From the sequence record MK573636: a stretch of DNA of 64,000 bases; one strand, given 5' to 3'. The notes beneath the pieces are model-generated. The model made no database searches, had not been told where the DNA came from, and saw nothing but the letters and a program-made list of their open reading frames with translations. The translations under genes and the position numbers were made by a program. Each line of letters opens with the position of its first letter. Within the stretch, counting starts at the first letter, position 1. This stretch comes from Escherichia phage vB_EcoM_PHB13. Positions 1,840 to 40,849 of the stretch are shown here, piece after piece.

Positions 1840-3639
1840 TCACCCAAGATCAATACGGCTACCATCAATTTTAACTGTACCAGATGCAATATCTTTAACG
1901 CTTGCACCACAATTACGGGACCAGTCACCATTAACCTGGTCTGATTTAGTGCCATTGACGGTCATATTAAAATTACCCTCAACGGTTAAATCATAGTTAC
2001 CTTTAATTGTTTCGGTAGTGTTACCCTCGATCATTAATTCAGCATTACCCTTGACGTTAGCCGTCAAATTGGCGTCAAGCTGCGCGGTAACATCACCTAC
2101 AACATGCATATTTGCAGTACCTTCAACGGTCTGATTAACATTGCCACGAATAAATTCAGTGACGTTACCATCAACGGTTTGCATCACATTACCCATATAA
2201 TAAACTTGCGCGTCACCTTCAACAACAACTTGCAGATTTCCTTTAACGTTGACTTTGCGACCTTGCTTAACGATCAAATAATCATCACCTTCAATCTTTT
2301 CTACCCTCGTTCCGTCCGGTCTGGTTTCTTCAAATGTACCAGAAGGATGTTTACGATGATAACGCTCGTGAGAAGGAGTATCATCAATCTCGATAATATG
2401 ACCGCTCTCTGACTCGTACACATGGTTATATGGATACCTTGCAGAATACGAACTCTTAGGCTCTTTAAACATGATTCGTGTGTCTTGTGGGGTAAACGGT
2501 GCTTCTGGGTCTTCTTCTGCTCTCTGCGTCTTATAGGCAGCAATACGGGCATTTCTCAAACGTGCTCGCGGATCATCCGAAATTGATTCCTCTTTCTTTG
2601 GAGCAATTACGCCATATGATTCTAAGTTACCAGTTAAAATAATTTTAGAAACACGGCTTGAACGTCCTGGAGTTTGGTTAGCCCATACCGATTGACGTAA
2701 TCCATCATAGGCTTGTTTCCATTCTTCCGCTAACATCGCAGCAAGACTATTCTTAAATTTACCCAATCCACCAACGCCCATTTGAAACGCCATATTTTCT
2801 AATGCCATACGACGAGAAGCATTACACTTATTATAGACAGGTGCAATTCGTGGATGTTTGCGCATATCACGACGAGTCTTTTCTATATCGTCAGCAAATA
2901 CTTTACTGACTTCTTCGGCTGTAAGTCTTCCGTTTGTAACTTCACGCCCTACCAGCTTAGAAAGTTCATTATTGATAATACCCAGATCACTGGTTTTCTT
3001 ATAAATGATCAAATGCCCGATTCCTATTGTCGGATATCCTTCTGAATCAAGATACCATTTCTCACGATATCCCTCATCGCCACGAAGCATTTTTTCTATT
3101 GTAAAATCAGGATTATCATCAACCGGAATTTGATCTAATGGCTCGTCGTCTGGATTTACTGCAACTCCAGTGTTTTCATCTCGAATATAGACACTATCAG
3201 GTTTTGTTGTTTGTCCGGTTTCTGGGTTAATACCGCCACGGGCAAGAATATTAACATCATTACCGATATAACGCGGATATGCACCGGAAGGGTCGCAAAA
3301 ACCTTCTGTAGTGAGTGGTTTCTCTGTATATTGTCCGGCAATAGTACCCAGAATAACGCAGTTTAAATAACGTTCATCTAAAGCCAAACCAAATACCATT
3401 GAACCTTCAACAATACCAGTAGGGCTTTGACCTATACCGGAGATCGCCGCGCTTGTAATATCTTGTACTGGCGTAATCCATAATAGATCTTCGGTTGGAA
3501 GACCTTGAATGTCACCGTGTGCGGATAGCGAAGGATGTATACCATGAATCCTAACCTGAACACGCCCCAGCATTAATGGGTCTTCCCTGTTTTCTACAAT
3601 TCCGGTAAACCATTTAACGGAGTTATTAAACATTAGCAT
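1840..3639 (-). CDS. 5: baseplate central spike / tail lysozyme gp5
   Basis: 599 aa. Central T4-lysozyme-like domain (...MLRGDEGYREKWYLDSEGYPTIGIGHLI...) and C-terminal beta-helix repeats (VxGNxxxxV repeated many times) are typical of the T4 cell-puncturing device. Confidence 0.9.
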   Translation of the reverse strand: MLMFNNSVKWFTGIVENREDPLMLGRVQVRIHGIHPSLSAHGDIQGLPTEDLLWITPVQDITSAAISGIGQSPTGIVEGSMVFGLALDERYLNCVILGTIAGQYTEKPLTTEGFCDPSGAYPRYIGNDVNILARGGINPETGQTTKPDSVYIRDENTGVAVNPDDEPLDQIPVDDNPDFTIEKMLRGDEGYREKWYLDSEGYPTIGIGHLIIYKKTSDLGIINNELSKLVGREVTNGRLTAEEVSKVFADDIEKTRRDMRKHPRIAPVYNKCNASRRMALENMAFQMGVGGLGKFKNSLAAMLAEEWKQAYDGLRQSVWANQTPGRSSRVSKIILTGNLESYGVIAPKKEESISDDPRARLRNARIAAYKTQRAEEDPEAPFTPQDTRIMFKEPKSSYSARYPYNHVYESESGHIIEIDDTPSHERYHRKHPSGTFEETRPDGTRVEKIEGDDYLIVKQGRKVNVKGNLQVVVEGDAQVYYMGNVMQTVDGNVTEFIRGNVNQTVEGTANMHVVGDVTAQLDANLTANVKGNAELMIEGNTTETIKGNYDLTVEGNFNMTVNGTKSDQVNGDWSRNCGASVKDIASGTVKIDGSRIDLG

Positions 3640-17097: not shown

Positions 17098-17292
17098 ATG
17101 CAAGTTTATACCAATAGCAATAAAGGACAAGATATTACGCCCGGAAAGATGTATGATTTTACCCCGGCACGAGACGACGAACATCCACCGACTATCGGGT
17201 ATATTGAAGATGATGTGGGGTTTCGTATTACGATCCTTCTTGATGGTGGATGTTCTCATCTTCGCGGTGATAAATGGGAGTTAGTACCATGA
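17098..17292 (+). CDS. small paralogous protein A
   Basis: 64 aa; shares K(M/L)Y.FTP...GYI.DD.G...GCSHL...W motifs with the next two ORFs. Confidence 0.45.
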   Translation: MQVYTNSNKGQDITPGKMYDFTPARDDEHPPTIGYIEDDVGFRITILLDGGCSHLRGDKWELVP

Positions 17293-17534
17293 TGTATGTG
17301 ATGACACCTTATAGTAGTAGATCGTACATCACCCCAAATAAACTGTATAAGTTTACGCCAGATGAAAGAATGTCTACCTACGGTTACATCAAAGATGATA
17401 AAGGATACAAACTTTTTATTTCTCTGAAAAGCTGTGCATACTTAGACGACCGTCCGTGGACACTGATCGAAGAACCAAAACAACCTGAGAATAAAGGTCT
17501 TTGGAATGTGCTAAAAAAATTCTTGAAAAAGTAG
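17289..17534 (+). CDS. small paralogous protein B
   Basis: About 81 aa paralog of 17098; ATG after GGAG SD. Confidence 0.45.
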   Translation: MMYVMTPYSSRSYITPNKLYKFTPDERMSTYGYIKDDKGYKLFISLKSCAYLDDRPWTLIEEPKQPENKGLWNVLKKFLKK

Positions 17535-23119: not shown

Positions 23120-23400
23120 AAGACACAAACGAATTTAACTGTATTCAGGTAAGCCCGAATTTTATTGTTCCATCACTGGTGACTAAGCTGAATGGTCATA
23201 TGGTCGCTTTGTCTTCCACACCGCCAGAATCAGGAAAGTTTATTACTATCGTAGTTTATGCGGGGCAAATTTTCTCTCATGATTGCTGCATGAAAAATGG
23301 TCAGTTGATGGTTGCAAATTATGACTACGGCGACCTTGAATGGGAAGTTTTAGGACTGGCTAAAGGCGCTGAAATTCTGGGCTATATTCGATTAATTTAA
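23116..23400 (+). CDS. hypothetical protein
   Basis: 94 aa; ATGA overlap. Confidence 0.4.
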   Translation: MKDTNEFNCIQVSPNFIVPSLVTKLNGHMVALSSTPPESGKFITIVVYAGQIFSHDCCMKNGQLMVANYDYGDLEWEVLGLAKGAEILGYIRLI

Positions 23401-23418
23401 ATTTTTTCTTAGAAAGTG

Positions 23419-23447
23419 TTGACAGCGATCCGGTGTCATTGCATAAT
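23419..23447 (+). promoter_or_regulatory. sigma70-type early promoter cassette
   Basis: TTGACA-N17-CATAAT followed by ACACCCATCGAAACGAGATAC...AGGAGAATCAAAA-ATG. Confidence 0.6.
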
Positions 23448-23488
23448 ACACCCATCGAAACGAGATACACTTTCTAGGAGAATCAAAA

Positions 23489-23710
23489 ATGGCAACTGTT
23501 AAAATTATCAAATCTTCCGCTGGTTTCGGTTTCATGCGTGGAGCTAAGTACCCGATGATTATTGAAAACGTTGCCATCGAAGATGGTATGGCTAAAGTGA
23601 CCAGCCGTCAATTGTTCGAAGCTGGTGTTAAAACTGCTGAATCATGGGCGCTTCGTTACCCAAACAAAACTTGGTCTTTCTTCCTGAATGGAGAAGCAGA
23701 GGTCATCTAA
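23489..23710 (+). CDS. small protein, KIEII/GVKLPII family member
   Basis: 73 aa; KIIKSSAGFGFMRGAKYPMIIE resembles the N-termini of ORFs at 26061, 26277 and 26534. Confidence 0.45.
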   Translation: MATVKIIKSSAGFGFMRGAKYPMIIENVAIEDGMAKVTSRQLFEAGVKTAESWALRYPNKTWSFFLNGEAEVI

Positions 23711-23728
23711 GTAATATTATTAATCAAT

Positions 23729-23750
23729 GCCCCTTAATTGGGGCTTTTCT
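23729..23750 (+). terminator. intrinsic terminator
   Basis: GCCCCTTAATTGGGGC hairpin plus T-rich tail. Confidence 0.5.
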
Positions 23751-23764
23751 TGTGAGGAAATTTT

Positions 23765-24544
23765 ATGGCAATATCTTCTGGATGGGTAGGATCATCTGCT
23801 GTGTCCGAGACTGGTCAACGGTGGATGAGTGCCGCAATGGAAGCTGTACGCTTAGGTCGTCCGGCGTATATGTCAGCAATGGTCGGACGTTCTAAAGAGA
23901 TTCATTATAGCATTGGTGCTAGTAACTCTTACAATAAAGATACGCTTATTAACTGGATGAAAGCACAAGGATCTACTCCGGTAGTAATTACTATCACAGG
24001 TAATATTGTTTCCCAATCTACTGGCGTTCCTTGTCTTGACTTCCCTAGCTCGTTAACAAACGAATATGTAACATTGATCATTAACTCCGGTGTTCATGTT
24101 TGGGGGCGTGGTGGTAATGGTGGCAATAACTCCGCTGGTGGTGCTGGTGGTAATGCAATTAACAACGGTATAGGCACACGCTTACGCATCACAAATAACG
24201 GTGTTATCGCAGGCGGTGGCGGTGGCGGTGGTGGCGGATATTATTCTCCTACGAAACCAATGAAATTAACCTTTGGTGGTGGCGGCGGTCGTCCATTTGG
24301 TGCTGCTGGTGGGTCTGCTAATATGGAACGGGGTGCTACTGCTGGTACTATTTCCGCGCCAGGTAAAGGGTCTGTCAACGGTGTATATAATGGCGGTAAC
24401 GGTGGTGATGCTGGCGGTGCTGGTGGTAAATGTAATATCCGTGGACAGGGATCGGAATATAATGGCGGTGCGGCTGGTAAGGCTGTTACTGGCAATGCCC
24501 CTCGCTGGGATAAAGTAGGCACGATCTACGGTGCTCGCGTGTAA
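23765..24544 (+). CDS. glycine-rich protein with gp38-adhesin-like polyglycine motifs
   Basis: 259 aa; about 110 aa N-terminal domain, then GGNGGNN, GGAGG, a run of nine Gly, GGGGG and GGNGGDAGGAGG segments resembling the glycine-rich motifs of T2-type gp38 adhesins and colicin translocation domains. Confidence 0.5.
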   Translation: MAISSGWVGSSAVSETGQRWMSAAMEAVRLGRPAYMSAMVGRSKEIHYSIGASNSYNKDTLINWMKAQGSTPVVITITGNIVSQSTGVPCLDFPSSLTNEYVTLIINSGVHVWGRGGNGGNNSAGGAGGNAINNGIGTRLRITNNGVIAGGGGGGGGGYYSPTKPMKLTFGGGGGRPFGAAGGSANMERGATAGTISAPGKGSVNGVYNGGNGGDAGGAGGKCNIRGQGSEYNGGAAGKAVTGNAPRWDKVGTIYGARV

Positions 24545-24550
24545 TTTTAT

Positions 24551-24587
24551 GGGCTATCCTTCGGGATAGCCTTTTTGTTTTTTGGGT
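24551..24587 (+). terminator. intrinsic terminator
   Basis: GGGCTATCCTTCGGGATAGCC hairpin plus T-tract. Confidence 0.65.
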
Positions 24588-24588
24588 G

Positions 24589-24616
24589 TTGACAATGAAA
24601 ATCATAGTGCTATAAT
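24589..24616 (+). promoter_or_regulatory. sigma70-type early promoter cassette
   Basis: TTGACA-N16-TATAAT followed by GCACACATACCAACTAAGGAGAATCAAAG-ATG. Confidence 0.6.
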
Positions 24617-24645
24617 GCACACATACCAACTAAGGAGAATCAAAG

Positions 24646-24936
24646 ATGACCGCTGAACAATTAATCAAACATATCCGCAACATTATTTGGGATCTGTCTG
24701 GTGATAAAGAGGAACAGGCTGAACGCATTTTAGCTAAACTCTATGAGCGCCGTGACCGTGGAGTATCCGTAAAGAAAGTAGAAACTTTCAAAGAGTTATC
24801 TTTCATCGAAGCTAAAAAGGATGGATTAATTTATCAGTTGACAGATGGTTACTGGTGCTATGATAATACTCGCTATGACACCGCGACTGATGCATTAAAA
24901 GCATGTAATGACCATCTTCGCAAAACTACAATTTGA
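24646..24936 (+). CDS. hypothetical early protein
   Basis: 96 aa behind a promoter cassette. Confidence 0.45.
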   Translation: MTAEQLIKHIRNIIWDLSGDKEEQAERILAKLYERRDRGVSVKKVETFKELSFIEAKKDGLIYQLTDGYWCYDNTRYDTATDALKACNDHLRKTTI

Positions 24937-24946
24937 GGATTATATT

Positions 24947-25144
24947 ATGAAGGTTAAAACATTGGCTGATATGGATGAGATCGAGACTCAAGTACATGCG
25001 GCGCTAGTCGGTTATGAGTTTGGTCGATTCCTTAATAAGTTCCATGATTATAAATGCTTAAATTGTGGTGCTCATAACGTAATTGGTGCTTGCTGTATTA
25101 ATCCTGTTATAGTACCATATAAAAGAAATGAAACAGAAGAGTGA
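24947..25144 (+). CDS. Cys-rich small protein
   Basis: About 65 aa from GAGGATTATATT-ATG; CxxC and CC motifs. Confidence 0.4.
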   Translation: MKVKTLADMDEIETQVHAALVGYEFGRFLNKFHDYKCLNCGAHNVIGACCINPVIVPYKRNETEE

Positions 25145-25154
25145 GGAATATAGA

Positions 25155-25412
25155 ATGAATGCCAACGAACAAGTAATACCGCCACCTTTCGGTCGCATTC
25201 CTATAGTTATCACAAAGTCAAATATGTCTTTCGTTGAGGTTGGTGAGCGTACACACATAACAACGATGCACGGAAAACAGTATATTTGGTCATCTTTCTG
25301 TAAATCGTATGAGCTTTTAAGCTGGGCGATTGATGTATGGAAAATTGAATATGAAGTAATTACAGAAGAGAGAGGAATACAAAATGAAAAAGTTGATGGC
25401 TACATTTCATGA
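25155..25412 (+). CDS. small paralogous protein
   Basis: About 85 aa; ITKSNMSFVEVGERTHITTM...SWAIDVWKIEYEVITEE duplicated in the next ORF. Confidence 0.45.
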   Translation: MNANEQVIPPPFGRIPIVITKSNMSFVEVGERTHITTMHGKQYIWSSFCKSYELLSWAIDVWKIEYEVITEERGIQNEKVDGYIS

Positions 25413-25474
25413 CATGCGAGATCTACCAGGTTTAGCACATATCGATTTTCCTGTTACTATGGAAGTGTCGGAAT

Positions 25475-25819
25475 ATGACGGTTATCATGATATTCTGTTC
25501 ATTAAAAAATACTGAGTTTATCCGCTTAGGCGCTAAACCTGCTGTGCTATACCCAGAAGGAAACCGGACAGCGGTCAGAAAAACAAATTCTGTTAAATTG
25601 TCATTTAGTTCAGATGTTGGCTTGGAACCCGCTTTCGGATATACTCCGGTCGAGATCACAAAATCGAATACTTCTTTCGTGAAAGTTGGAGAGAAAACGC
25701 ATATTTCAACTATGCCGAACGGTGCACAATATCTATGGTCCGATTTCTGCCAGCGTTATGAGCGTTTATCATGGGCTACCCGCTTATGGTGTGTTGAGTA
25801 TAAGGAGATCACAAAATGA
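25475..25819 (+). CDS. small paralogous protein
   Basis: Paralog of 25155 (EITKSNTSFVKVGEKTHISTM...SWATRLWCVEYKEITK); start uncertain. Confidence 0.4.
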   Translation: MTVIMIFCSLKNTEFIRLGAKPAVLYPEGNRTAVRKTNSVKLSFSSDVGLEPAFGYTPVEITKSNTSFVKVGEKTHISTMPNGAQYLWSDFCQRYERLSWATRLWCVEYKEITK

Positions 25820-26064
25820 TCACCGGATATATTCCATATTCAACGACAAAACACATTATCGGATTTGAAGACATAGAAAAGTCTTGCTTTCCTCTCAAGG
25901 TTGAAGTAGACTTTATTACAGCGAACGGATGGGCTTACGTCACTGTTTCAGAAATGAAGCGAGTGGGGTGGGAAAACTGCATACACCTACCGCATCTTAT
26001 CCTAGATGTTCGCGCTGGTGAAATTGATATTGCTGGAAAGATCTATGGAGATAATGTAACATGA
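25816..26064 (+). CDS. hypothetical protein
   Basis: 82 aa; ATGA overlap. Confidence 0.4.
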   Translation: MITGYIPYSTTKHIIGFEDIEKSCFPLKVEVDFITANGWAYVTVSEMKRVGWENCIHLPHLILDVRAGEIDIAGKIYGDNVT

Positions 26065-26258
26065 AAATTGAAATTATTGATGACGGTGGATTTTCTTTCA
26101 TGAATGGCGTTAAACTTCCTATTATCGTGGAAGGTCGTCGGTATGGGCTTGATTATCTTGTAGAAACGCAGGAACTACAAAAAGCTGGAGTGCCGATTAA
26201 AGGTTATTTTCCTGAGTATGAATGGTGTTTTCGTGCCAATGAAGCATGGGTAGTGTAA
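26061..26258 (+). CDS. small protein, KIEII/GVKLPII family
   Basis: 65 aa (MKIEIIDDGGFSFMNGVKLPIIVEG...YEWCF). Confidence 0.45.
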   Translation: MKIEIIDDGGFSFMNGVKLPIIVEGRRYGLDYLVETQELQKAGVPIKGYFPEYEWCFRANEAWVV

Positions 26259-26276
26259 CTAATTGAGGATTATATT

Positions 26277-26534
26277 ATGAAGATTGAAATTATTAGTGAT
26301 GCCGATTATTCTTTCTTGAAAGGTGTTAAACTTCCGATCATTGTTAGAGGAACTCCCTTCTATGATAGTTTTTTGGTAACGACCAAAGAATTACGCAAAG
26401 CTGGCGTTTCCTTTGAGGGAATTTACAATGATGATTATGAATGGTGTTTCTTGGATAGATTTGCCCGTAAAGCAGAAAAAGCACGAAAAGAATCATGCTT
26501 TGCTCGCTTTAATAACTGGTTGAGGAAGCTGTAA
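26277..26534 (+). CDS. small protein, KIEII/GVKLPII family
   Basis: 85 aa (MKIEIISDADYSFLKGVKLPIIVRG...YEWCF), tandem paralog. Confidence 0.45.
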   Translation: MKIEIISDADYSFLKGVKLPIIVRGTPFYDSFLVTTKELRKAGVSFEGIYNDDYEWCFLDRFARKAEKARKESCFARFNNWLRKL

Positions 26535-26872
26535 TGAACGAACCGAAAATGTATTTGTTGCTGAATGATTCAGGATACACCTTCTTACAAGGTGTCGAAA
26601 GTGATTCCCGTCCGATTGTATATGGCAAGGAGCATCCGACCATTCCTGGGATCATTCTTGTTACGACAAGATCACTTCGTCGAGTGTCGGAAAGCCCATA
26701 CCTACAAAACGTAAAGCAAGACCGAGAATGGGCTTTCGAGTTGGGTAAAGACCTTGTTGAATGGGTAAACTGTGAAGACAAGAACCAAAGAAATCATGAA
26801 AAGAAGATTGCACGACTTGAACATAGAAGAAAACTTGATGAAATCAAAAACAGGATTCTACAATCAATGTAA
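26534..26872 (+). CDS. small protein, KIEII/GVKLPII family (divergent)
   Basis: 112 aa (..DSGYTFLQGVESDSRPIVYG...REWAF). Confidence 0.4.
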   Translation: MNEPKMYLLLNDSGYTFLQGVESDSRPIVYGKEHPTIPGIILVTTRSLRRVSESPYLQNVKQDREWAFELGKDLVEWVNCEDKNQRNHEKKIARLEHRRKLDEIKNRILQSM

Positions 26873-27101
26873 CAGAGTATTCATTGTCCTGATGGAGTCG
26901 GAAAACTATCCTGAACTCTCTAAAACGCGTTTTCCGTGCGTTGTTGAAGCATATAAGGTAAATGCACCGGATAAACAGTTTATCGTGTTAGCTAGCGAAA
27001 TAGAGCGGCTAGGGGCGATTCCTAAACATGATGAATACGTGTTTCGTAAGGTGTACTCTGTACATCATTTTGATGTAGTAGTTAATTTACTAAAATCATA
27101 A
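26772..27101 (+). CDS. hypothetical protein
   Basis: ORF-track frame; the true start is probably an internal ATG near 26892 after the upstream stop. Confidence 0.3.
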   Translation: MKTRTKEIMKRRLHDLNIEENLMKSKTGFYNQCNRVFIVLMESENYPELSKTRFPCVVEAYKVNAPDKQFIVLASEIERLGAIPKHDEYVFRKVYSVHHFDVVVNLLKS

Positions 27102-27109
27102 AAAAGTTG

Positions 27110-27138
27110 TTGACAGGGGATCGCGTATCCCCTATACT
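27110..27138 (+). promoter_or_regulatory. sigma70-type early promoter cassette with spacer palindrome
   Basis: TTGACA-GGGGATCGCGTATCCCC-TATACT followed by ...ACGAAACACACTTTCTTAAGGAGAATCAAA-ATG. Confidence 0.55.
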
Positions 27139-27180
27139 ACACACATCAAAACGAAACACACTTTCTTAAGGAGAATCAAA

Positions 27181-27459
27181 ATGAGCAATCTGTCTTTCGC
27201 TAAAGTAGAAATTTCTAAAACTCGCGGTGGCTTTAAAATCAAAACTTCCAATATCACTTCCTGCCGTGGTTGCGACCAGTTTGCTCGTGACCTTGCTGTG
27301 AAGCTGGGTATCAAAACCTTTACCGTTGAGAGCGGATCTAACTGGACTACCCTGATTGTTGCTGCCGCTTGGATCAATGGCGAGTATGTGGAAAAAGCAT
27401 ACTTTGACATTTTCTACGACTACGAAGAAAAATGCTTTTATGCACTGCAAGACATGTAA
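27181..27459 (+). CDS. hypothetical early protein
   Basis: 92 aa behind a promoter cassette. Confidence 0.45.
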   Translation: MSNLSFAKVEISKTRGGFKIKTSNITSCRGCDQFARDLAVKLGIKTFTVESGSNWTTLIVAAAWINGEYVEKAYFDIFYDYEEKCFYALQDM

Positions 27460-27468
27460 GGAGGTATT

Positions 27469-27777
27469 ATGGATTTAAACGCGTTAGGCAGAAATCTTTC
27501 TATCTGGGCGGTAGGTGCAATGATCTCGTATCTTGTATTCTGCTTGTATGCCAGATTCGACAAGGACACTAAAGAGGTTGATATAGGAGCATTTTGTATT
27601 GCTGCGATCGTCTGGCCTATAACGTGGATTATTGTAGAAATTGTCATGATCTATAAAGGATTGAAATGTTTTGGTCTATCAATTGCTGGTAAGCCGGAAG
27701 CTAAACCGCGCACGCATAAAGGATTCAGTCCAAAACAGGAAGATGGCGGTCGATATAAACCGGAAGAAGATTTTTAA
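27469..27777 (+). CDS. small membrane protein
   Basis: 102 aa with two TM segments and a charged C-terminus. Confidence 0.4.
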   Translation: MDLNALGRNLSIWAVGAMISYLVFCLYARFDKDTKEVDIGAFCIAAIVWPITWIIVEIVMIYKGLKCFGLSIAGKPEAKPRTHKGFSPKQEDGGRYKPEEDF

Positions 27778-27812: not shown

Positions 27813-27846
27813 AGCCGCATCAAATGAACGATGTGAGGATTATATT

Positions 27847-28155
27847 ATGTTTATCTCTTCTGCTACTCCAGTTAAAGTTTACGGCGAAACTGTGTATCTT
27901 CCGGCTGGCTATCGCTATGTTATCGTTGACCGTTACGGTGATGTATATGCTTTTAAAGGCCGTCCGGTTGAGATTGATGCTGAATATTGTACATGGGGAT
28001 ATAAAGCCGCTTACATGGATATTCCTGATTTGGGAGTACGCTTAGGAAGATTTGATAATGATGTTAAACCATGCTTGATTAAGTATGCATCCTATGGTAA
28101 AACTGTTAAACCAAATAGCGTCGGCTGGATTGATGACGGCGTTAACGTGAAATAA
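27847..28155 (+). CDS. hypothetical early protein
   Basis: 102 aa. Confidence 0.45.
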   Translation: MFISSATPVKVYGETVYLPAGYRYVIVDRYGDVYAFKGRPVEIDAEYCTWGYKAAYMDIPDLGVRLGRFDNDVKPCLIKYASYGKTVKPNSVGWIDDGVNVK

Positions 28156-28677: not shown

Positions 28678-28963
28678 TATAAAACACTCACCGACCGGAA
28701 AGGGGTCGGTGATTTTCAATGACGATAAACCGTTAATCTTAATTCGTAATGGTGACTGGACATTACACGATACCCGTGTTACTATCCATTCACCGCCTAA
28801 AGAGATTCAACGGGAATTGGTTAGGATCGCCCTAACCGATAAGCATAAAGAGGCGGTAGGCTATTCTCTTTTGAAGTTGGGTGTTGACTTTCCTTTCGAG
28901 TATACGCTAACATTCAGAGAGCAGTCAGTGCGATTAACAGAGATTCTATTCTCTGAGATATGA
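28667..28963 (+). CDS. hypothetical protein
   Basis: 98 aa. Confidence 0.4.
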   Translation: MMISIKHSPTGKGSVIFNDDKPLILIRNGDWTLHDTRVTIHSPPKEIQRELVRIALTDKHKEAVGYSLLKLGVDFPFEYTLTFREQSVRLTEILFSEI

Positions 28964-28973
28964 GGATTATATA

Positions 28974-29405
28974 ATGGTTTATCCAACTCCTAGTAAGATT
29001 TACATTGATGATACCCATTTTATGGTTGATATGATGGGTATAAAGTTTAGTGGTATTGTTAAAATTGTAGAATGGGAATTGCACGGTCAACCTGTCACTG
29101 ACTATGACCATTACATTCCTTTTTTGGGTGATGACAATTTTGTCTCGTTTGACCATGAAGGTTACATGATCTTTGAACAGTCTGACGTACCGACCTATCT
29201 GGCAATGATGCAAATTCCTACGAAGGTTTCTGTTGCTGAGGGTGATTGCGATTGCTGCGGTTGGTATAGTGTAACAGATATTAAGTTGCCATCCGGTAAA
29301 GAACTCTATAACGAAGACCATTTTGGAAACTGCAACTTTCCGTGTGATTGGGATGAATTTTTCGAACTGGTAGAAACTGAAAGAACTTATTTAAGGAAGG
29401 GATAA
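28974..29405 (+). CDS. hypothetical Cys-rich protein
   Basis: 143 aa; CDCC and CNFPC motifs. Confidence 0.4.
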   Translation: MVYPTPSKIYIDDTHFMVDMMGIKFSGIVKIVEWELHGQPVTDYDHYIPFLGDDNFVSFDHEGYMIFEQSDVPTYLAMMQIPTKVSVAEGDCDCCGWYSVTDIKLPSGKELYNEDHFGNCNFPCDWDEFFELVETERTYLRKG

Positions 29406-30220: not shown

Positions 30221-30953
30221 GGTTATACACAAGACTCCAGAAGATAAACGTTTATATGATTTATATCATTCACGGTTTTATTATGATGATGGTTTTCTTA
30301 GGTGGAAGATTCACCCGCACCGAAAAGGTGTTATAAACGGATTAGCTGGAAGTGATACCCCCGATGGGTATCGTATTGTATGGACTGGCGAGCGATACGA
30401 ACGTATGCACCGTGTTATCTATCATATGTTTCATGGTCATTGTCCTAAGTATATAGATCATAAAGACCGAGATCGTTATAATAGCCGCATTGAAAACCTT
30501 AGAGAGACGACAAGCAAACAAAATAATATGAATATGAGCAAGACCAAATGCAAAACATATTCGAAGTATAAAGGTGTGTCGTTTAATAAGAATAAAGGTT
30601 ATTGGACTGGTGCAATAATGTTGGATGGGAAGTCGATACATTTAGGATATTTTCCCTCTGAGATCGGTGCGGCGTATGCATATAATCTTGCAGCGTTGAA
30701 ACATTTTGGTGATAGGTATTGTATAAACGAGATTGATGATATAGAATATGCAAAGTCTGAATATGGCAAGAAGCTCCAAAAAGCAGCAAGTTCCCGTCAT
30801 AGATACGTTTACAAAGTACCAAAACAAGGTAATTACGGTGCTAAAGTTCGCGGTGTGTATATAGGAAGATTTGACACAGAAGATGATGCGGCACGGGCAG
30901 TTAATGCCTATATTATTGAAAATGAACTTGATATAGAACTGAATGAGGTATAA
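30198..30953 (+). CDS. HNH-AP2 homing endonuclease
   Basis: 251 aa; HNH_3-type motif (IDHKDRDRYNSRIENLRETTSKQNNMN) followed by two AP2-like DNA-binding domains (YKGVSFNKNKGYWTGAI..., NYGAKVRGVYIGRFDTEDDAARAVNAYI). Start overlaps the last 23 nt of dam. Confidence 0.75.
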   Translation: MSPMLKYEVIHKTPEDKRLYDLYHSRFYYDDGFLRWKIHPHRKGVINGLAGSDTPDGYRIVWTGERYERMHRVIYHMFHGHCPKYIDHKDRDRYNSRIENLRETTSKQNNMNMSKTKCKTYSKYKGVSFNKNKGYWTGAIMLDGKSIHLGYFPSEIGAAYAYNLAALKHFGDRYCINEIDDIEYAKSEYGKKLQKAASSRHRYVYKVPKQGNYGAKVRGVYIGRFDTEDDAARAVNAYIIENELDIELNEV

Positions 30954-30954
30954 C

Positions 30955-31236
30955 ATGGTAGAAATTTTTGGTTTTGAGGGTTACAACTGTAAGTATTGCC
31001 AGAATGCAAAGCGACTTTGTGAATCGCGTAAGATCCCTTACATCTACATTCCGGTTAATGATGGTGTAGACGAAAACGGTCGTCCGGTAAAGATTGATTA
31101 TATCATTGCCGACATTCAGGATCGCGCAGGGGTAGAAGTTATTGCCACCATGCCGCAGATTTTCTATAATGGTGATTATATTGGTGGTTTTGATGAGTTC
31201 CGTTCCTTTGTAGTCAAAAACAAGATTAATGGTTAA
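30955..31236 (+). CDS. nrdC: glutaredoxin / thioredoxin NrdC
   Basis: About 93 aa with CKYC active site and C-terminal PQIFYNGDYIGGFDEF glutaredoxin signature; T4 nrdC position next to gene 49. Confidence 0.75.
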   Translation: MVEIFGFEGYNCKYCQNAKRLCESRKIPYIYIPVNDGVDENGRPVKIDYIIADIQDRAGVEVIATMPQIFYNGDYIGGFDEFRSFVVKNKING

Positions 31237-31737: not shown

Positions 31738-31766
31738 TTGACAATAAGAAATGGGAGTAGTAAAAT
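31738..31766 (+). promoter_or_regulatory. sigma70-type early promoter cassette with spacer palindrome
   Basis: TTGACA...GGGAGTAGTAAAATACTCCC...; the -10 is inside the palindrome; leader AAGGAGAATCAACA-ATG. Confidence 0.55.
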
Positions 31767-31797
31767 ACTCCCATCTAATCAAGAAGGAGAATCAACA

Positions 31798-32070
31798 ATG
31801 CGTAAGATGTTTAAATCCGGTGTGGCCTATGTTTTTAAATCTGAGCAAGCACGTAAAGACTTCTTAGAGGATGACTACGAAGGTTTGAAAGATACCTACG
31901 AAGTCATCAAGAATGGGTTTACTGTTCTTAAAGTGTCACCTATTGGTTATGTAAGTGAAATCTCGGTTGATGGGAAAACATATACCGCTAAAGACTTTGA
32001 TCCGCGTTGGGAATTTATGCTTCTTCCGTGTGACCGCATTCTGTTTCGTGCTGTTCAATTAGTGAAATGA
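31798..32070 (+). CDS. hypothetical protein, FKVL/ERKYFKRI-family module
   Basis: About 90 aa; the ORF-track start at 31738 is the promoter TTG. Shares the GFxVLKV...G.V...DG..YTA.DF module with the next two genes. Confidence 0.45.
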   Translation: MRKMFKSGVAYVFKSEQARKDFLEDDYEGLKDTYEVIKNGFTVLKVSPIGYVSEISVDGKTYTAKDFDPRWEFMLLPCDRILFRAVQLVK

Positions 32071-32084
32071 TAGAGGATTATATT

Positions 32085-32645
32085 ATGGTACAGAAAACGT
32101 ATAAATTGTATCCGGCTAAGTCTTCAACTGATGCTGTTTTTGAACGAGGTCGTTATTACACTTTCCGTAATGCTGAGTCCGCAGAGGAATTTATCAAACG
32201 ATGTCCGCAACATAATAAGTTCTTGTATGACGTGCTTTGTAACGGCTTTAAAGTTCTCACTGTTGATGCGATGGGGCGTGTGTATCTGGTAGAAACTCAT
32301 GAGTATGAAGGTGCATCTGTTCTGATTGCTGCAAACGAGCGCAAATACTTTAAACGCATCACTAAAAAGCAGTTTGAAGAAATGAAACCAGTTAAGAAAG
32401 AAGAATCTCTGGGAGATCTGATTAACTTGTTTGGTAAAGTTCGCTCGATCTCCTTTGCGATTGAAGATGACATTACTGACAATAAAATCTTTATCAAGAG
32501 CGCGGAAGACCTGAAAGAGTTTCTTATTGAAAATAGATTTCGGCTGGAAACCTTTCTTGAAAGTGAAATTATTCGACATGATACTTACGCTAAATTCAGC
32601 GCCGATAAAGTAGCTGAACTGAAAGAGATCCAAAAGTCACTTTAA
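32085..32645 (+). CDS. hypothetical protein, FKVL/ERKYFKRI family
   Basis: About 186 aa from GAGGATTATATT-ATG; contains ...GFKVLTVDAMGRVYLVE...ERKYFKRITKKQFEEM. Confidence 0.45.
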   Translation: MVQKTYKLYPAKSSTDAVFERGRYYTFRNAESAEEFIKRCPQHNKFLYDVLCNGFKVLTVDAMGRVYLVETHEYEGASVLIAANERKYFKRITKKQFEEMKPVKKEESLGDLINLFGKVRSISFAIEDDITDNKIFIKSAEDLKEFLIENRFRLETFLESEIIRHDTYAKFSADKVAELKEIQKSL

Positions 32646-32648
32646 CAC

Positions 32649-32677
32649 TTGACATGATGAAACGGGAGTAGTAAGAT
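32649..32677 (+). promoter_or_regulatory. sigma70-type early promoter cassette with spacer palindrome
   Basis: TTGACA...GGGAGTAGTAAGATACTCCC... Confidence 0.55.
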
Positions 32678-32708
32678 ACTCCCATTTAAACAACTAGAGG
32701 ATTATATT

Positions 32709-33887
32709 ATGGCTAAATTCTTTGAAGGTCATTACTATGCATTCCGTGAAGGTGGTAAAGATGAGTTTCTAGACTTTTCTCGCTATTCAATTATTCTGAC
32801 CGATGCTTCGCGCCGTGGTCATATTCGGGTTGCTGAAATCGTCGAAAAGGGCTTTAAAGTATTAGAAAAAGATGACAACGGTCATGTTATTACTATTGAA
32901 GCTGGAGATGTAGTTTATTCCGCTGAGGATATCGTTTATTATTGGGCTACTATGATTATGCACGATGAGCGTAAATACTTTAAACGCATCTCAAAAGAGG
33001 CATACGAAGCGATGAACAAGAAAGAGGATGCAATGCCGACTTACTTTGAAAAAGGTAAATGTTATTCGTTTACACCAGAAGGTTTGCAAGAATTTAAGCG
33101 ATTCTGGGGAGAGCATGATCCAGATCACAAAGAAGCTATGAAACTTGTTGATTTTGTCGAATATGGCTTTTTAGTTGAAGAAGAATTGCACGGATCAGCT
33201 ACCATGATCACCGCGAAAGGTGAAACTGTTAAGGCAGATCGTTTTTGTGATCAATGGGCTTGTGTGTTTGATGGTGGCGAATTTGAATACTTCGCGGAAA
33301 TCACGAAACAACAATTTCATTCTATGCAAGCGGATGGTCAGAGATTTAAAGTAGGTGAACGCTACAAGCCAAATCAGCATAATTTGCCATATTGGTTTAC
33401 CGCTGAAACTGTATCAAGTCATGTTGTTGAAATTGTTCAAAAGCTGGGACAAGGATTTAAGGTGACTAAAGTAGATGATTATGGAAGTGTTGACGCGGTT
33501 GAAATTGATGGTGTAGAATATACACCGAAATCTTTCGGGCTTTGCTGGTATCACTTGATCAGCAATGATGAACGTTATAACTTTGTTGAACTGCCATCTG
33601 AACCGGAAGAAGCACTAGAAGATCATGATCATCTGTCTGAACTGGTTAAACTGTTTGGTGATCTGCCGGATGGTGTAGGCGTGGCGGTAATGGGTGAAGG
33701 TACTGTTATTCGCAACCTGAAAGACCTTAAAAAGTTCTTGATTGACATGCTGCCTAAACTTGATGATAATCTCGATAAAGATATTCAGAATCGCAAAGAA
33801 ATTGTTAAAGATACTGAAAAAGAGATCGAAGAGATTCGAGCAATTCGCCAGAAGGTGAAAGCAGTAAAGAAAAAAGTTAGTGCTTGA
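32709..33887 (+). CDS. hypothetical protein, FKVL/ERKYFKRI family (multi-module)
   Basis: 392 aa with at least three related internal modules (GFKVLEKDDNGHV..ERKYFKRISKEAYEAM; GFLVEEELHG...; GFKVTKVDDYGSV...). Confidence 0.45.
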   Translation: MAKFFEGHYYAFREGGKDEFLDFSRYSIILTDASRRGHIRVAEIVEKGFKVLEKDDNGHVITIEAGDVVYSAEDIVYYWATMIMHDERKYFKRISKEAYEAMNKKEDAMPTYFEKGKCYSFTPEGLQEFKRFWGEHDPDHKEAMKLVDFVEYGFLVEEELHGSATMITAKGETVKADRFCDQWACVFDGGEFEYFAEITKQQFHSMQADGQRFKVGERYKPNQHNLPYWFTAETVSSHVVEIVQKLGQGFKVTKVDDYGSVDAVEIDGVEYTPKSFGLCWYHLISNDERYNFVELPSEPEEALEDHDHLSELVKLFGDLPDGVGVAVMGEGTVIRNLKDLKKFLIDMLPKLDDNLDKDIQNRKEIVKDTEKEIEEIRAIRQKVKAVKKKVSA

Positions 33888-38252: not shown

Positions 38253-38262
38253 GGTGATTATT

Positions 38263-38790
38263 ATGGAATGGGAAGTTGGTAAAACTTACAAGATTGAATG
38301 CGAAGCGTCGAAAGCCGAACTGACTAAATTTTCGTCGTCTATTAACAGATGTATTGTTGACTTGTTGGCTGGTCGCCCGTTTAGGGTAGAAGACCTTGAC
38401 GATGATGGTGATGTTAGAGAAATTACTATTATTGGTAGTAATTTCGACTCTATGACGTTAAAAGAATCCCCTATTGGCTGTTCCGGTGTGTGGTTTTGGT
38501 CGGGTGAGCGTCGTTTCTTTACCGAAGTTACTATTGAACCTAAGATTCCAGATTCGGAAGAAAAAGAAGAAGACCTAACTTTAGAACGCCTGGGTCTGCT
38601 TATGGAAGCCTACGACATTCAGTTGATCGATAAGATGGGGTTACATAATAGCATTGCCAAAATTACTACCCTAGAAGGTATTAAGAGCGTGCTTGATGGT
38701 ATGCCTAGCCGGATCGGTGCTATCCGAGAATACAAGCAAACGCGCGACCGTATGATCCAATTAGAATCACGTATCAAAAATGAGAGATGA
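38263..38790 (+). CDS. WExGKTY-family protein (paralog 1)
   Basis: About 175 aa starting MEWEVGKTYK. Confidence 0.45.
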   Translation: MEWEVGKTYKIECEASKAELTKFSSSINRCIVDLLAGRPFRVEDLDDDGDVREITIIGSNFDSMTLKESPIGCSGVWFWSGERRFFTEVTIEPKIPDSEEKEEDLTLERLGLLMEAYDIQLIDKMGLHNSIAKITTLEGIKSVLDGMPSRIGAIREYKQTRDRMIQLESRIKNER

Positions 38791-38794
38791 TATT

Positions 38795-39259
38795 ATGAAA
38801 TGGGAAGCTGGTAAGACCTATGCGTGGAAAGATGTAAAAGATGCAAACCAATTTTTTAAATGGTATGATGTTGATTATTTGAAATATCTGAGATTACCGT
38901 TTAAAGTTGCGTCGGTTGATGCGAAAAAAGGATACGTGCGGTCTGTTTATCTTCATGATGGAACTTATATGAGTTCAACCGATGTAGGTCTATCTTGTTG
39001 GTTTCTGGATCATGACCGTAGCAGATTTGAAGAAATTATTATTCCAGAAGAATCTAAATTAATTGATCTTCTCAAGTTGGCGATGGATAATTATAAAATC
39101 CGCTTTGAATGCAAATCACATGCGGCTATCGGTGCTAACGCCTTGCGTCATATCTCCAGTTTTGAAGAGTTGAAAGATTTTCTTGACAAAATGCCGGAAA
39201 GGGTGCAAGCTATACAGGAAGCAGAGAAAGCATTAAACGAACTTGATAAAATCGGTTAA
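38795..39259 (+). CDS. WExGKTY-family protein (paralog 2)
   Basis: About 154 aa starting MKWEAGKTYAWKD. Confidence 0.45.
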   Translation: MKWEAGKTYAWKDVKDANQFFKWYDVDYLKYLRLPFKVASVDAKKGYVRSVYLHDGTYMSSTDVGLSCWFLDHDRSRFEEIIIPEESKLIDLLKLAMDNYKIRFECKSHAAIGANALRHISSFEELKDFLDKMPERVQAIQEAEKALNELDKIG

Positions 39260-39271
39260 GGGGAATATATT

Positions 39272-40096
39272 ATGAAATGGGAAATTGGTAAAACTTACAC
39301 CTGGAAAGACGAAAACGCTAAAACTGAGTTTATTACTAACGGAGAAGGTGTTCTTTCTCCACTTAACAGCGATATTAGTGCAGCTATTGGTGACAAGCCA
39401 TTTACCATCATCGAGATCGAGGGTAACGGTTGGATTGATGCAATAGAGCTAGACGGTGTTTATCATACGGCGAAAACTGCTACAGGAAAAGACATTTGGA
39501 AGTCAACATATTTGTTTAGTCCATTTGATAGAAAATTCTTTCGTGAAGTTGAAGAAGTTCCCCAGAAATGGGAAGTTGGTAAAACTTATACTTGGAAAGA
39601 TATTAAGGCTATGACCGACTTCTGTCATTATGCCGAAAACGTATCTAACCTTAATTATGTTATTGCACGAGCAATAAATTATAGACCTTTTACTGTTAAA
39701 AATGTTCGTCCATGTGGGCAAATTGATGTAATTGAAATTGATGGTAAAGACCATACTCTAATGAGCGCAACCGAAGATAGAGACCATAAAGGAACTAGCT
39801 GGTTTATTGATTCTGATAGAAAATTCTTTCGTGAAGTAGAAGAATTGGAAGTTATAACCACTGATTCTAAGATCGTTGGACAGTTGAAACGTCTGTTTAG
39901 TAGTCGTTACGGCCTGACAATGGTTAAATTTGGCGAAGCAAATGAAGGTAAAACCTTTGAACGTTTCGATGATTTCATTTCGGCACTTGACAAGATGGAT
40001 GAAATCATGCAAGATCGCCAGAAGATTAAAGACCTTCAAGAAGACATTAAACGTCGTGAAGTTGAATTTTTGATTGGTAAAGAGCGAGGATGGTAA
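39272..40096 (+). CDS. WExGKTY-family protein (paralog 3, internally duplicated)
   Basis: 274 aa with two copies of the module (MKWEIGKTYTWKD... and ...QKWEVGKTYTWKD..., each ending DRKFFREVEE). Confidence 0.45.
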   Translation: MKWEIGKTYTWKDENAKTEFITNGEGVLSPLNSDISAAIGDKPFTIIEIEGNGWIDAIELDGVYHTAKTATGKDIWKSTYLFSPFDRKFFREVEEVPQKWEVGKTYTWKDIKAMTDFCHYAENVSNLNYVIARAINYRPFTVKNVRPCGQIDVIEIDGKDHTLMSATEDRDHKGTSWFIDSDRKFFREVEELEVITTDSKIVGQLKRLFSSRYGLTMVKFGEANEGKTFERFDDFISALDKMDEIMQDRQKIKDLQEDIKRREVEFLIGKERGW

Positions 40097-40097
40097 T

Positions 40098-40583
40098 ATG
40101 TTTGTTGCTGGCGTGACCTATCAGTGGAAAGATAAGAAAACGAGAGAAGATTTTGCAAACTTTAGCGTTGCAAATGATGCAATAGCAGAGTTTATCGGCG
40201 ACCGTCCATTTAAAGTTATTGCATTTGATCACCACCATGCATCGGATGTGAATTATGTTTCTGTGATTGAAATTGATGGCACGGTATACACCTGCTGCAA
40301 TGTTGATGATGTACGGGAATACGCGCACAACTGGTTTTTGCAATCAGAAGAACGTCATTTTAAAGTGGTATCGGCAGAGCTATCATCCGAAGCAATGTTG
40401 GAACAATTTTTCAACAACTACGAAGTTTCTGTACGTCGCTATGGCGAAGAAGAAGTGTTTAAAATCGATGATTACAATCAGTTTAAACGAGTATTCGCCA
40501 CTAAGTTACAGCGTGATTTTGAACGCGAGAAGCGCATCAAGGAACTGGAAGAAGAATTGGAAAGATTAAAGGCTGAGAAATGA
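40098..40583 (+). CDS. WExGKTY-family protein (paralog 4)
   Basis: About 161 aa starting MFVAGVTYQWKD. Confidence 0.45.
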   Translation: MFVAGVTYQWKDKKTREDFANFSVANDAIAEFIGDRPFKVIAFDHHHASDVNYVSVIEIDGTVYTCCNVDDVREYAHNWFLQSEERHFKVVSAELSSEAMLEQFFNNYEVSVRRYGEEEVFKIDDYNQFKRVFATKLQRDFEREKRIKELEEELERLKAEK

Positions 40584-40849
40584 TCGAGATATACGGTATA
40601 CCGAAAGAGGCTTATCATTGTTATGGTTGTATTAGTGCAATGAAGCTACTGGATGATCTGGGTATTCCGTATACACTTAAACCAGTATTCAAGCAGGTCG
40701 GGGTTGACATTATTCCCGACCGTGATATGATTGAAGAACTGGCGGGGAGGCTAAACTCAAAGAGCCTCCGGTTTGTATACCCCCAGATATTCATTGACAA
40801 CGAGCACATTGGAGGCTATAAAGAACTGAGGGCGATTTATGATTATTGA
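40580..40849 (+). CDS. nrdH: glutaredoxin-like protein NrdH
   Basis: 89 aa with CYGC redox motif and C-terminal PQIFIDNEHIGGY glutaredoxin signature; T4 nrdH position. Confidence 0.7.
   Translation: MIEIYGIPKEAYHCYGCISAMKLLDDLGIPYTLKPVFKQVGVDIIPDRDMIEELAGRLNSKSLRFVYPQIFIDNEHIGGYKELRAIYDY

Follow-up and report, generated by a model that had tools for sequence, protein, structure and literature searches.

Are the small genes packed between rI and dam in an RB49-like phage the product of a recent local burst of duplication, or are they the members of something much older? The question is raised by positions 23489–26872 of a 64,000-nt stretch of Escherichia phage vB_EcoM_PHB13 (sequence record MK573636; the whole stretch is referred to as the window), in which a preliminary description made from the sequence had recognised two duplicated gene families lying side by side and had ascribed them to recent duplication and divergence under host-interaction selection. 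T4-type phages carry large hyperplastic regions full of small early genes without assigned function, and multigene ORFan families are already familiar from these regions. The reading that we consider probable, although well short of certain, is that of a multigene array, old in origin, which encodes small early accessory binding proteins and has been remodelled by recombination without a recent burst of duplication. The copies diverged long ago and most of them are kept by purifying selection, while loss, fusion and allele swapping continually reshape the array.

The window derives from an RB49-like T4-type coliphage of the genus Krischvirus. Megablast of positions 23400–27200 retrieved 86 phage records, and the matches listed were all RB49-like T4-type coliphages of this genus, with vB_EcoM_011D4 at the top (94.6% identity). 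By synteny with the annotated RB49 genome the stretch is flanked by rI/rI.-1 on its upstream side and by dam on its downstream side, in agreement with the earlier assignment to the rI-dam hyperplastic region. Related loci were compared in a set of 14, presence/absence and allele counts were taken from 58 Krischvirus records, and 24 loci were fetched overall; GenBank records were fetched singly because a scan of IMG/VR for relatives of the gene at 25816 yielded just two loci. All-against-all BLASTP and hidden Markov model (HMM) scans covered the 391 open reading frames (ORFs) of at least 40 aa in the window. The genes of the two families, designated A and B, are as follows.

23489–23710, plus strand: B0, 73 aa, a monocistronic cassette (phrog_7345, E = 3e-34).
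25155–25412, plus strand: A1, 85 aa, the A-domain alone, an accessory copy (A-domain HMM, E = 3e-41).
25384–25819, plus strand: A2, a two-domain gene of 144 aa when intact (intact orthologues P0049 and P0050).
25816–26064, plus strand: the 25816 gene, 82 aa, a divergent B member missed by the preliminary description (independent HMM and hhalign).
26061–26258, plus strand: B1, 65 aa, the B-domain alone, acidic (phrog_7345).
26277–26534, plus strand: B2, 85 aa, B-domain with a basic C-terminal helix (F.RFNNWLRKL), fast-evolving (phrog_7345).
26534–26872, plus strand: B3, 112 aa, divergent B-domain with a charged C-terminal helix (independent HMM, E = 8e-6).
26838–27101, plus strand: B4, 87 aa, divergent B-domain overlapping B3 by 35 nt, unlisted previously (independent HMM, E = 5e-7).

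Formal alignment confirmed the similarities on which both families had been proposed. B1 and B2 aligned at 58.6% over 58 aa (E = 1e-19, z = 35); B0 reached z = 8.8 against B1 and 10.6 against B2 (0 of 2000 shuffles attained the score; B0/B2 BLASTP E = 5e-5), and B3 reached 6.1 and 8.8, respectively (B3/B2 BLASTP E = 1e-3). A1, for which a longer ORF opens at 25128, shared 50% identity over 80 aa with the ORF at 25475–25819 (BLASTP E = 3e-25; Smith-Waterman z = 40 with 2000 shuffles). Both matched the common families phrog_16117/phrog_10407 (E = 5e-72 and 4e-26 for the A2 ORF, 1e-22 and 1e-18 for A1), and one of the motifs quoted for them takes the form EY..IT rather than EY.EIT. The idea that such resemblances are a matter of chance or composition is refuted: it found no support, and although the weakest single-sequence pairs, those of B4 with the others, scored only z = 0.2–2.8, the main pairs stood at 35–40, independent profiles ranked all members at the top of the 391 ORFs and the negative controls failed.

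The B family proved larger than the four members initially described, all of which are real. The HMM of phrog_7345 recovered B1 (E = 4e-35), B0 (3e-34) and B2 (2.5e-24), with no match at E ≤ 0.01 for B3 or B4. The latter two were joined to the core through a wider profile and the bridging proteins P0063 and P0065, the second domains of which match B4's own family, phrog_17411; profile-profile comparison with the B0–B2 core (hhalign) gave P = 8.5e-5 for B3 and 3e-5 for B4. The B0–B2 profile was run exhaustively with HMMER over 1.84 billion representatives and returned 33 of them at E ≤ 1e-3, mostly remote homologues and several with two tandem domains, with the remote homologues following the consensus MKVKLLNDGGY..M..V.FPVVVEG...V...EL.R.GA...Y.W.F...EVIE. 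An independent B HMM was built from B0–B2 and these remote homologues only, leaving the candidates out. After B0–B2 it ranked B4 (5e-7), B3 (8e-6), the 25816 gene (9e-4) and the split N-terminus of A2, the best unrelated ORF standing at 0.24. With its frameshift repaired, the N-domain of A2 scored E = 6e-4 (1e-7 for the orthologue P0051). Local hhalign supported both the A2 N-domain (P = 2e-6) and the 25816 gene (P = 3.5e-6, probability 87.6%), compared to P = 0.01–0.37 for five neighbouring genes used as controls.

Profiles built without the candidate therefore recovered B3, B4, the 25816 gene and the A2 N-domain while unrelated neighbours failed, and a second HMM iteration found no further B members anywhere in the 64 kb. 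Collectively, a phage-specific B domain of ~60 residues occurs seven times (B0, A2 N-domain, 25816 gene, B1, B2, B3 and B4), the additions to the original four being 26838–27101, 25816–26064 and the N-terminal half of A2. A second domain, likewise of ~60 residues, occurs twice, in A1 and in the C-domain of A2, and HMM scans of the 64 kb found it in no ORF beyond these two. Both families are tandem, as had been claimed, but they are not simply neighbours: A2 unites them by combining a B-like N-domain (approximately residues 15–54) with an A-domain (approximately residues 80–144). Treating the A-domain itself as a distant relative of B was rejected (hhalign P = 0.2), and so was the candidacy of the gene at 27181 as an A-family member, put forward on a common 32-nt repeat (D5) and lacking HMM membership.

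Public databases record part of this grouping. B-type proteins are held in phrog_7345, phrog_13367, phrog_16316, phrog_17411 and VOG6032, and A-type proteins in phrog_16117 and phrog_10407; the annotation of phage kaaroe places the orthologues of B0, B1 and B2 all in pVOG VOG6032. The difference is that B3, B4, the 25816 gene and A2 sit there in separate families with no function assigned. Moonvirus, Proteus, Aeromonas, Klebsiella and Pantoea phages also carry relatives, located in their early or accessory regions.

The gene start at 25475 previously given for the second A-type gene was traced to a 1-nt insertion. In relatives A2 is an intact 435-nt ORF, which starts at the position of window 25384 and begins MKKLMATFHD; the window version measures 436 nt, compared to 435 nt in the leading GenBank matches. 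The window reads TTC ATT AAA AAA TAC TGA with six A residues at 25504–25509, whereas relatives have five and read F I K N T E, and a single 1-nt gap falls at this run in the alignment to five relatives. The extra A splits the gene and leaves the ATG at 25475 in the wrong frame, so that the true gene is 25384–25819. The six-A version was found neither in the 24 fetched loci nor in IMG/VR and is private to this genome; A2 in the window is either a natural knockout or the result of a sequencing error.

How old, then, are the duplications? Were they recent tandem events, with copies diverging fast under host-interaction positive selection in the manner of the 'genomic accordion' of T4 facing toxIN? 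The adjacent pair B1 and B2 are indeed mutual best relatives. However, the proportion of synonymous differences (pS, Nei-Gojobori) was 0.78 for A1/A2, 0.70 for B1/B2 and 0.75 for B0/B1, and synonymous sites of all paralog pairs were at or near saturation. Paralogs retained 47–65% nucleotide identity, whereas each copy present in the 14 related loci was a recognisable orthologue of the window copy, with 88–100% protein identity except for g38 and B2. In a best-partner analysis B1 and B2 were the only pair in which each was the closest relative of the other; for B0, B3, B4, the 25816 gene and the A2 N-domain the better-scoring partner was in each case a foreign metagenomic protein and not a neighbour, namely P0088 for B0 and, for B3, the N-domain of P0065, a fusion of B3-like and B4-like domains. 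The window order is kept in a divergent metagenomic contig (L022, GC 42%), which carries an A-domain gene, a B2-like gene with the F.RFN..L tail of B2 and then P0065. A second metagenomic contig (L023, GC 33%) holds six B-type domains in four adjacent genes. Saturation, foreign closest relatives and conserved order together indicate that the array is old and do not support the claimed recent local duplication; at most, B1/B2 represents a local duplication, itself old.

On L023 (2918–4913) the array lies just upstream of genes for Mom-like, QueC-like (a faint Pfam hit) and Dam-type methylase proteins. The pairing of the B superfamily with a DNA-modification neighbourhood is therefore seen outside Krischvirus too.

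Pairwise ratios of nonsynonymous to synonymous substitution rates (dN/dS) between orthologues were low for B0 (0.07), B1 (0.12), the 25816 gene (0.14), A2 (0.18), B4 (0.26) and B3 (0.31), and therefore most copies are real genes under constraint. B2 is the exception, with a value of 0.50 (range 0.37–0.86); A1 also gave 0.50, from six loci only and with little divergence. The B2 allele of the window shared just 59–65% of amino acids and 70–78% of nucleotides with B2 in 14 relatives, and the divergent block (~26272–26568) is sharply bounded by flanks that are 91–100% identical. Among 58 Krischvirus records with the gene, five carried the window-type allele, one an intermediate and 52 the other class, with dN of ~0.29, dS of ~0.4 and omega of 0.5–0.86 between the classes. 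Diversifying selection on B2 is possible. The proposal of host-interaction selection keeps this much, namely the elevated dN/dS and the two allele classes of B2; it is not carried by a McDonald-Kreitman test (p = 0.38) or by the other well-sampled copies, which are under purifying selection.

The within-family alignments, dN/dS estimates and survey across related phages that had been suggested as checks gave saturated pS, and also a copy number that varies among relatives. The latter, together with the behaviour of B2 and the precedent of rapid, recombination-driven counter-defence evolution in T4 (10.1101/2022.04.14.488369), is what speaks for an accordion-like history. The T4-toxIN case (10.1101/2022.04.14.488369, PMC9391042) resembles this locus in that accessory early gene content was altered by recombination, but those changes arose within an evolution experiment, whereas here saturated paralogs are fixed across a genus. 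With most copies nearer to foreign homologues than to their neighbours, with their order conserved in a divergent contig and with purifying selection on most of them, the accordion-like explanation is largely refuted for age, and we rate it as very unlikely.

Remodelling of the array was readily seen among relatives. Two features bracket A1:

25133–25159, plus strand: left copy of a 27-nt direct repeat (repeat D17), 89% identical to 25362–25388.
25362–25388, plus strand: right copy of the repeat (D17), holding the ribosome-binding site (RBS) and ATG of A2.

The two copies, each with an RBS and ATG, enclose a 229-bp A1 unit, and in RB49 and GEC-3S the gap lies exactly between them, marking the boundaries of an A1 indel. 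A1 DNA was present in 9 of the 58 Krischvirus records, a minority of relatives, and in 011D4 the gene is frameshifted (L002, 3707–3962) independently of the A2 frameshift. Window-type B1 occurred in 21 records, while ECD7, JSE, Makalu_002 and L003 have one gene only at the B1/B2 position. Several proteins in the databases are chimaeric or truncated: P0058 joins the N-terminus of A1 to the C-domain of A2, P0060 is A2 without its N-domain, in P0057 the gene upstream continues into A1, P0048 couples a foreign N-terminus with the C-terminus of B1, and P0044 unites B0 with the end of the 25816 gene. The last of these lies on a 163.7-kb Krischvirus contig in which the locus is cut down to the fusion plus B2, B3 and B4, so that phages in nature can do without A1, A2 and B1, without most of the 25816 gene and without the two unrelated operon genes. 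B2, B3 and B4 were found in every Krischvirus genome or locus examined. The rearrangement junctions point to recombination between paralogs, at the 27-nt direct repeat and at promoter cassettes.

In phage phiS (L020, ~3210–3473) the start codon of B2 is ATA instead of ATG. B2 may be truncated or inactive there, an exception to its otherwise universal presence. A conserved intercistronic motif containing an RBS and start codon, TGAGGATTATATTATG, precedes four genes in the window (24930–24952, 26260–26282, 27830–27852 and 28957–28979), and could provide short homology usable for recombination between genes.

The expression signals of the array are those of the promoter-early stem-loop (PeSL) type:

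23401–23488, plus strand: PeSL-type early promoter cassette before B0 (promoter scan 11/12).
23729–23744, plus strand: terminator-like GC hairpin and T run directly after B0 (a terminator is annotated at the equivalent site of GEC-3S).
24551–24645, plus strand: PeSL cassette opening the early operon (terminator and promoter annotated at the equivalent sites of GEC-3S).
27101–27180, plus strand: PeSL cassette closing the operon and starting the next (hairpin position).

Each of the three cassettes has a near-perfect sigma-70 promoter together with an AT-rich stretch, a GC stem-loop and a repeated RBS, in the layout described for PeSLs (PMC2839356), and the hairpin position at 27101–27180 is that of the commonest PeSL subclass (PMC2839356). 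The first has its AT-rich stretch, TTGACA at 23419, CATAAT ending at 23447 and an RBS, AGGAGAA, at 23476–23482, and its repeated motifs D4, D8 and D9 are common to other intergenic cassettes. The second consists of a hairpin (24551–24572), a perfect TTGACA-16-TATAAT promoter (24589–24616) and an RBS (24633–24639). From its sequence B0 would be a one-gene cassette with its own putative sigma-70-type promoter and terminator. The remaining genes would form one early operon between the predicted promoter at 24589 and the promoter cassette that follows at 27110; genes from 24646 to 27101 are packed with stops overlapping starts, as expected for a single early operon.

The PeSL systems of RB49 and phi1 (Arbiol et al. 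2010, PMC2839356; Comeau et al. 2014, PMC4122927) share with this locus the phage group, the type of region, the flanking of small ORFans by sigma-70 promoters and stem-loops, and a gene content that varies among close relatives. They differ in that several of the rearrangements seen here went through paralog-paralog homology or the 27-nt repeat and not through exchange between PeSLs. Selected RB49/phi1 PeSLs, other than the ones described here, showed promoter or terminator activity in reporter assays (PMC2839356), and PeSLs have been proposed to mediate ORFan shuffling (PMC2839356). Searches of PMC2839356 turned up neither the paralogs nor the equivalent phi1 ORFs (ORF073, 074, 076 and 080), and a literature search for these paralogs or for functional screens including RB49 ORFs returned nothing specific.

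Mobility of this kind raises the possibility that the genes are largely functionless passengers of mobile promoter cassettes which persist by recombinational spread. The documented PeSL-mediated shuffling of ORFans (PMC2839356), the absence of A1, A2, B1 and the 25816 gene from natural genomes, and the frameshifts of A1 and A2 in individual isolates would all fit, but passengers should not show a dN/dS of 0.07–0.18, as do B0, B1, A2 and the 25816 gene. Nor would they be expected to give a confident fold prediction, to keep their domain across many phage genera, or to retain B2, B3 and B4 at every Krischvirus locus examined and in the same order in a divergent contig. We consider it highly improbable that passengers make up the array.

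What the proteins may do was approached through their predicted structures. AlphaFold2 run on the B alignment modelled B1 with confidence (predicted local distance difference test, pLDDT, 96) as a small beta-barrel with one short helix, the weak fold matches of which were mostly SH3-like; on this model the superfamily is probably SH3-like. In BFVD an 84-aa protein of Makalu_003, approximately of the size of B4, matched B1 with a template modelling (TM) score of 0.77. In a same-fold comparison across the superfamily B1 was the sole well-modelled member. The A2 model was poor overall (pLDDT 59), with a beta-rich A-domain with one helix at 71–89 and an N-domain below 50, which makes structural matches of the latter meaningless; BFVD fold searches with A2 returned uncharacterised phage proteins only. 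A weak Imm33 match of B3 (E = 0.12) was disregarded.

Known small barrels used for comparison were SH3, KOW and the retroviral integrase C-terminal domain, and the proteins could be nucleic-acid-binding barrels of KOW, Sm or integrase C-terminal type, acting early in infection as regulators of RNA or DNA of the phage or of its host. Charges cut both ways: the helical tails of B2 and B3 are strongly basic (+5.8 and +4.0), as such a role would suggest, but the net charge of the barrel itself is negative in B1 (-3.5), in the B2 domain (-2.5) and in the 25816 gene (-4.2), and Pfam KOW and LSM models gave no match. Examination for the features of Sm/Lsm/Hfq proteins found no combination of Sm1 and Sm2 motifs, N-terminal helix and LSM/Hfq match. 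A nucleic-acid-binding role is in our view unlikely.

Under the favoured reading of an old, remodelled array, the products would be cytoplasmic binding modules made right after infection. Their probable targets would be host or competitor macromolecules, bound in the course of host takeover or counter-defence; searches of Pfam, NCBIfam, PDB and BFVD found no characterised homologue. Some copies probably act together, since related phages encode fused two-domain proteins. This can be carried further by supposing that the seven paralogs, probably SH3-like, are subunits of a single hetero-oligomeric early-infection complex of tandem barrels with a conserved B2-B3-B4 core, to which B0, B1, the 25816 gene and A2 would contribute exchangeable adaptor subunits that retarget the complex to host factors. 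The presence of B2-B3-B4 in every genome examined, the order kept in a divergent phage and the fused relatives (a Rosetta-stone signal) are the grounds for this extension, which we regard as distinctly unlikely.

Several observations weigh against an old array of functional binding proteins. Sequence searches of Pfam, NCBIfam and PDB with both families and their remote homologues gave nothing significant, and the BFVD neighbours of B1 are all uncharacterised phage proteins. For the A2 N-domain and the 25816 gene the match is confined to the ~37 central columns of the B domain. In B2, the McDonald-Kreitman test found nonsynonymous to synonymous ratios of 36:13 for fixed and 29:16 for polymorphic changes (p = 0.38), a result that tells against the accordion-like history as well, and fixed replacements were not enriched in predicted loops compared to the core (p = 0.39). 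Finally, A1, A2, B1 and the 25816 gene have each been lost in nature, which shows that these copies are dispensable on at least some hosts and fits a weak or redundant function as well.

Interspersed with the array are genes that belong to neither family:

23765–24544, plus strand: g38 tail-fibre adhesin, glycine-rich, a non-family insert parting B0 from the remaining array (annotated as g38 in RB49 and relatives).
24646–24936, plus strand: operon gene of neither family, 96 aa (separate PHROG).
24947–25144, plus strand: operon gene of neither family, 65 aa (separate PHROG).

The two operon genes are under strong constraint (dN/dS 0.07 and 0.06, respectively) and served among the negative controls of the hhalign comparison (P = 0.052 and 0.011). 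In RB49-like genomes g38 stands between B0 and the next early operon and behaves like an insertable cassette: L003, G37-3, G2248, G2494 and L025 lack it at this position, and in phiS (L020) both B0 and g38 are missing at the locus. In these six the adhesin must be located elsewhere or be of another type. Within g38 a hypervariable block (24195–24311) shows 75–91% nucleotide identity to close relatives between flanks of 98–100%; the block falls among the glycine-rich repeats (families D1, D7 and D16) and is probably where the adhesin contacts the receptor.

Further downstream, another divergent block with sharp boundaries was observed at 27467–27766 (ORF 27469–27777, the product of which has a hydrophobic N-terminal half), with 53–91% nucleotide identity to five relatives and flanks of 91–100%. 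It looks like a further allele-replacement hotspot similar to B2. All-against-all BLASTP revealed other paralog groups in the window, including the adjacent pair 17098/17274 (17098–17534, E = 7e-11), the pair 30943–31236 and 40580–40849 (E = 8e-9) and a group of seven ORFs starting at 31738, 32067, 32709, 38254, 38780, 39272 and 40074 (spans 31738–33887 and 38254–40583).

It was already known that the genes of this locus are annotated as hypothetical proteins and that B0, B1 and B2 are grouped in PHROG and pVOG. What is new is the link between seven members of one superfamily, the recognition of A2 as a two-domain protein, the conservation of the B2-B3-B4 trio and the existence of fused relatives, and the two allele classes of B2. 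The locus can fairly be taken as a well-resolved but ordinary phage accessory gene family. Krischvirus phages have been proposed for therapy, which lends it practical interest. For the T4-type phages it provides a defined and tractable example of the small early genes of a hyperplastic region, in which natural deletion variants offer ready-made controls. If the proteins are binders of host factors or defence components, the B2 alleles and the variation in copy number would make a compact model of how lytic phages tune their host range inside the cell.

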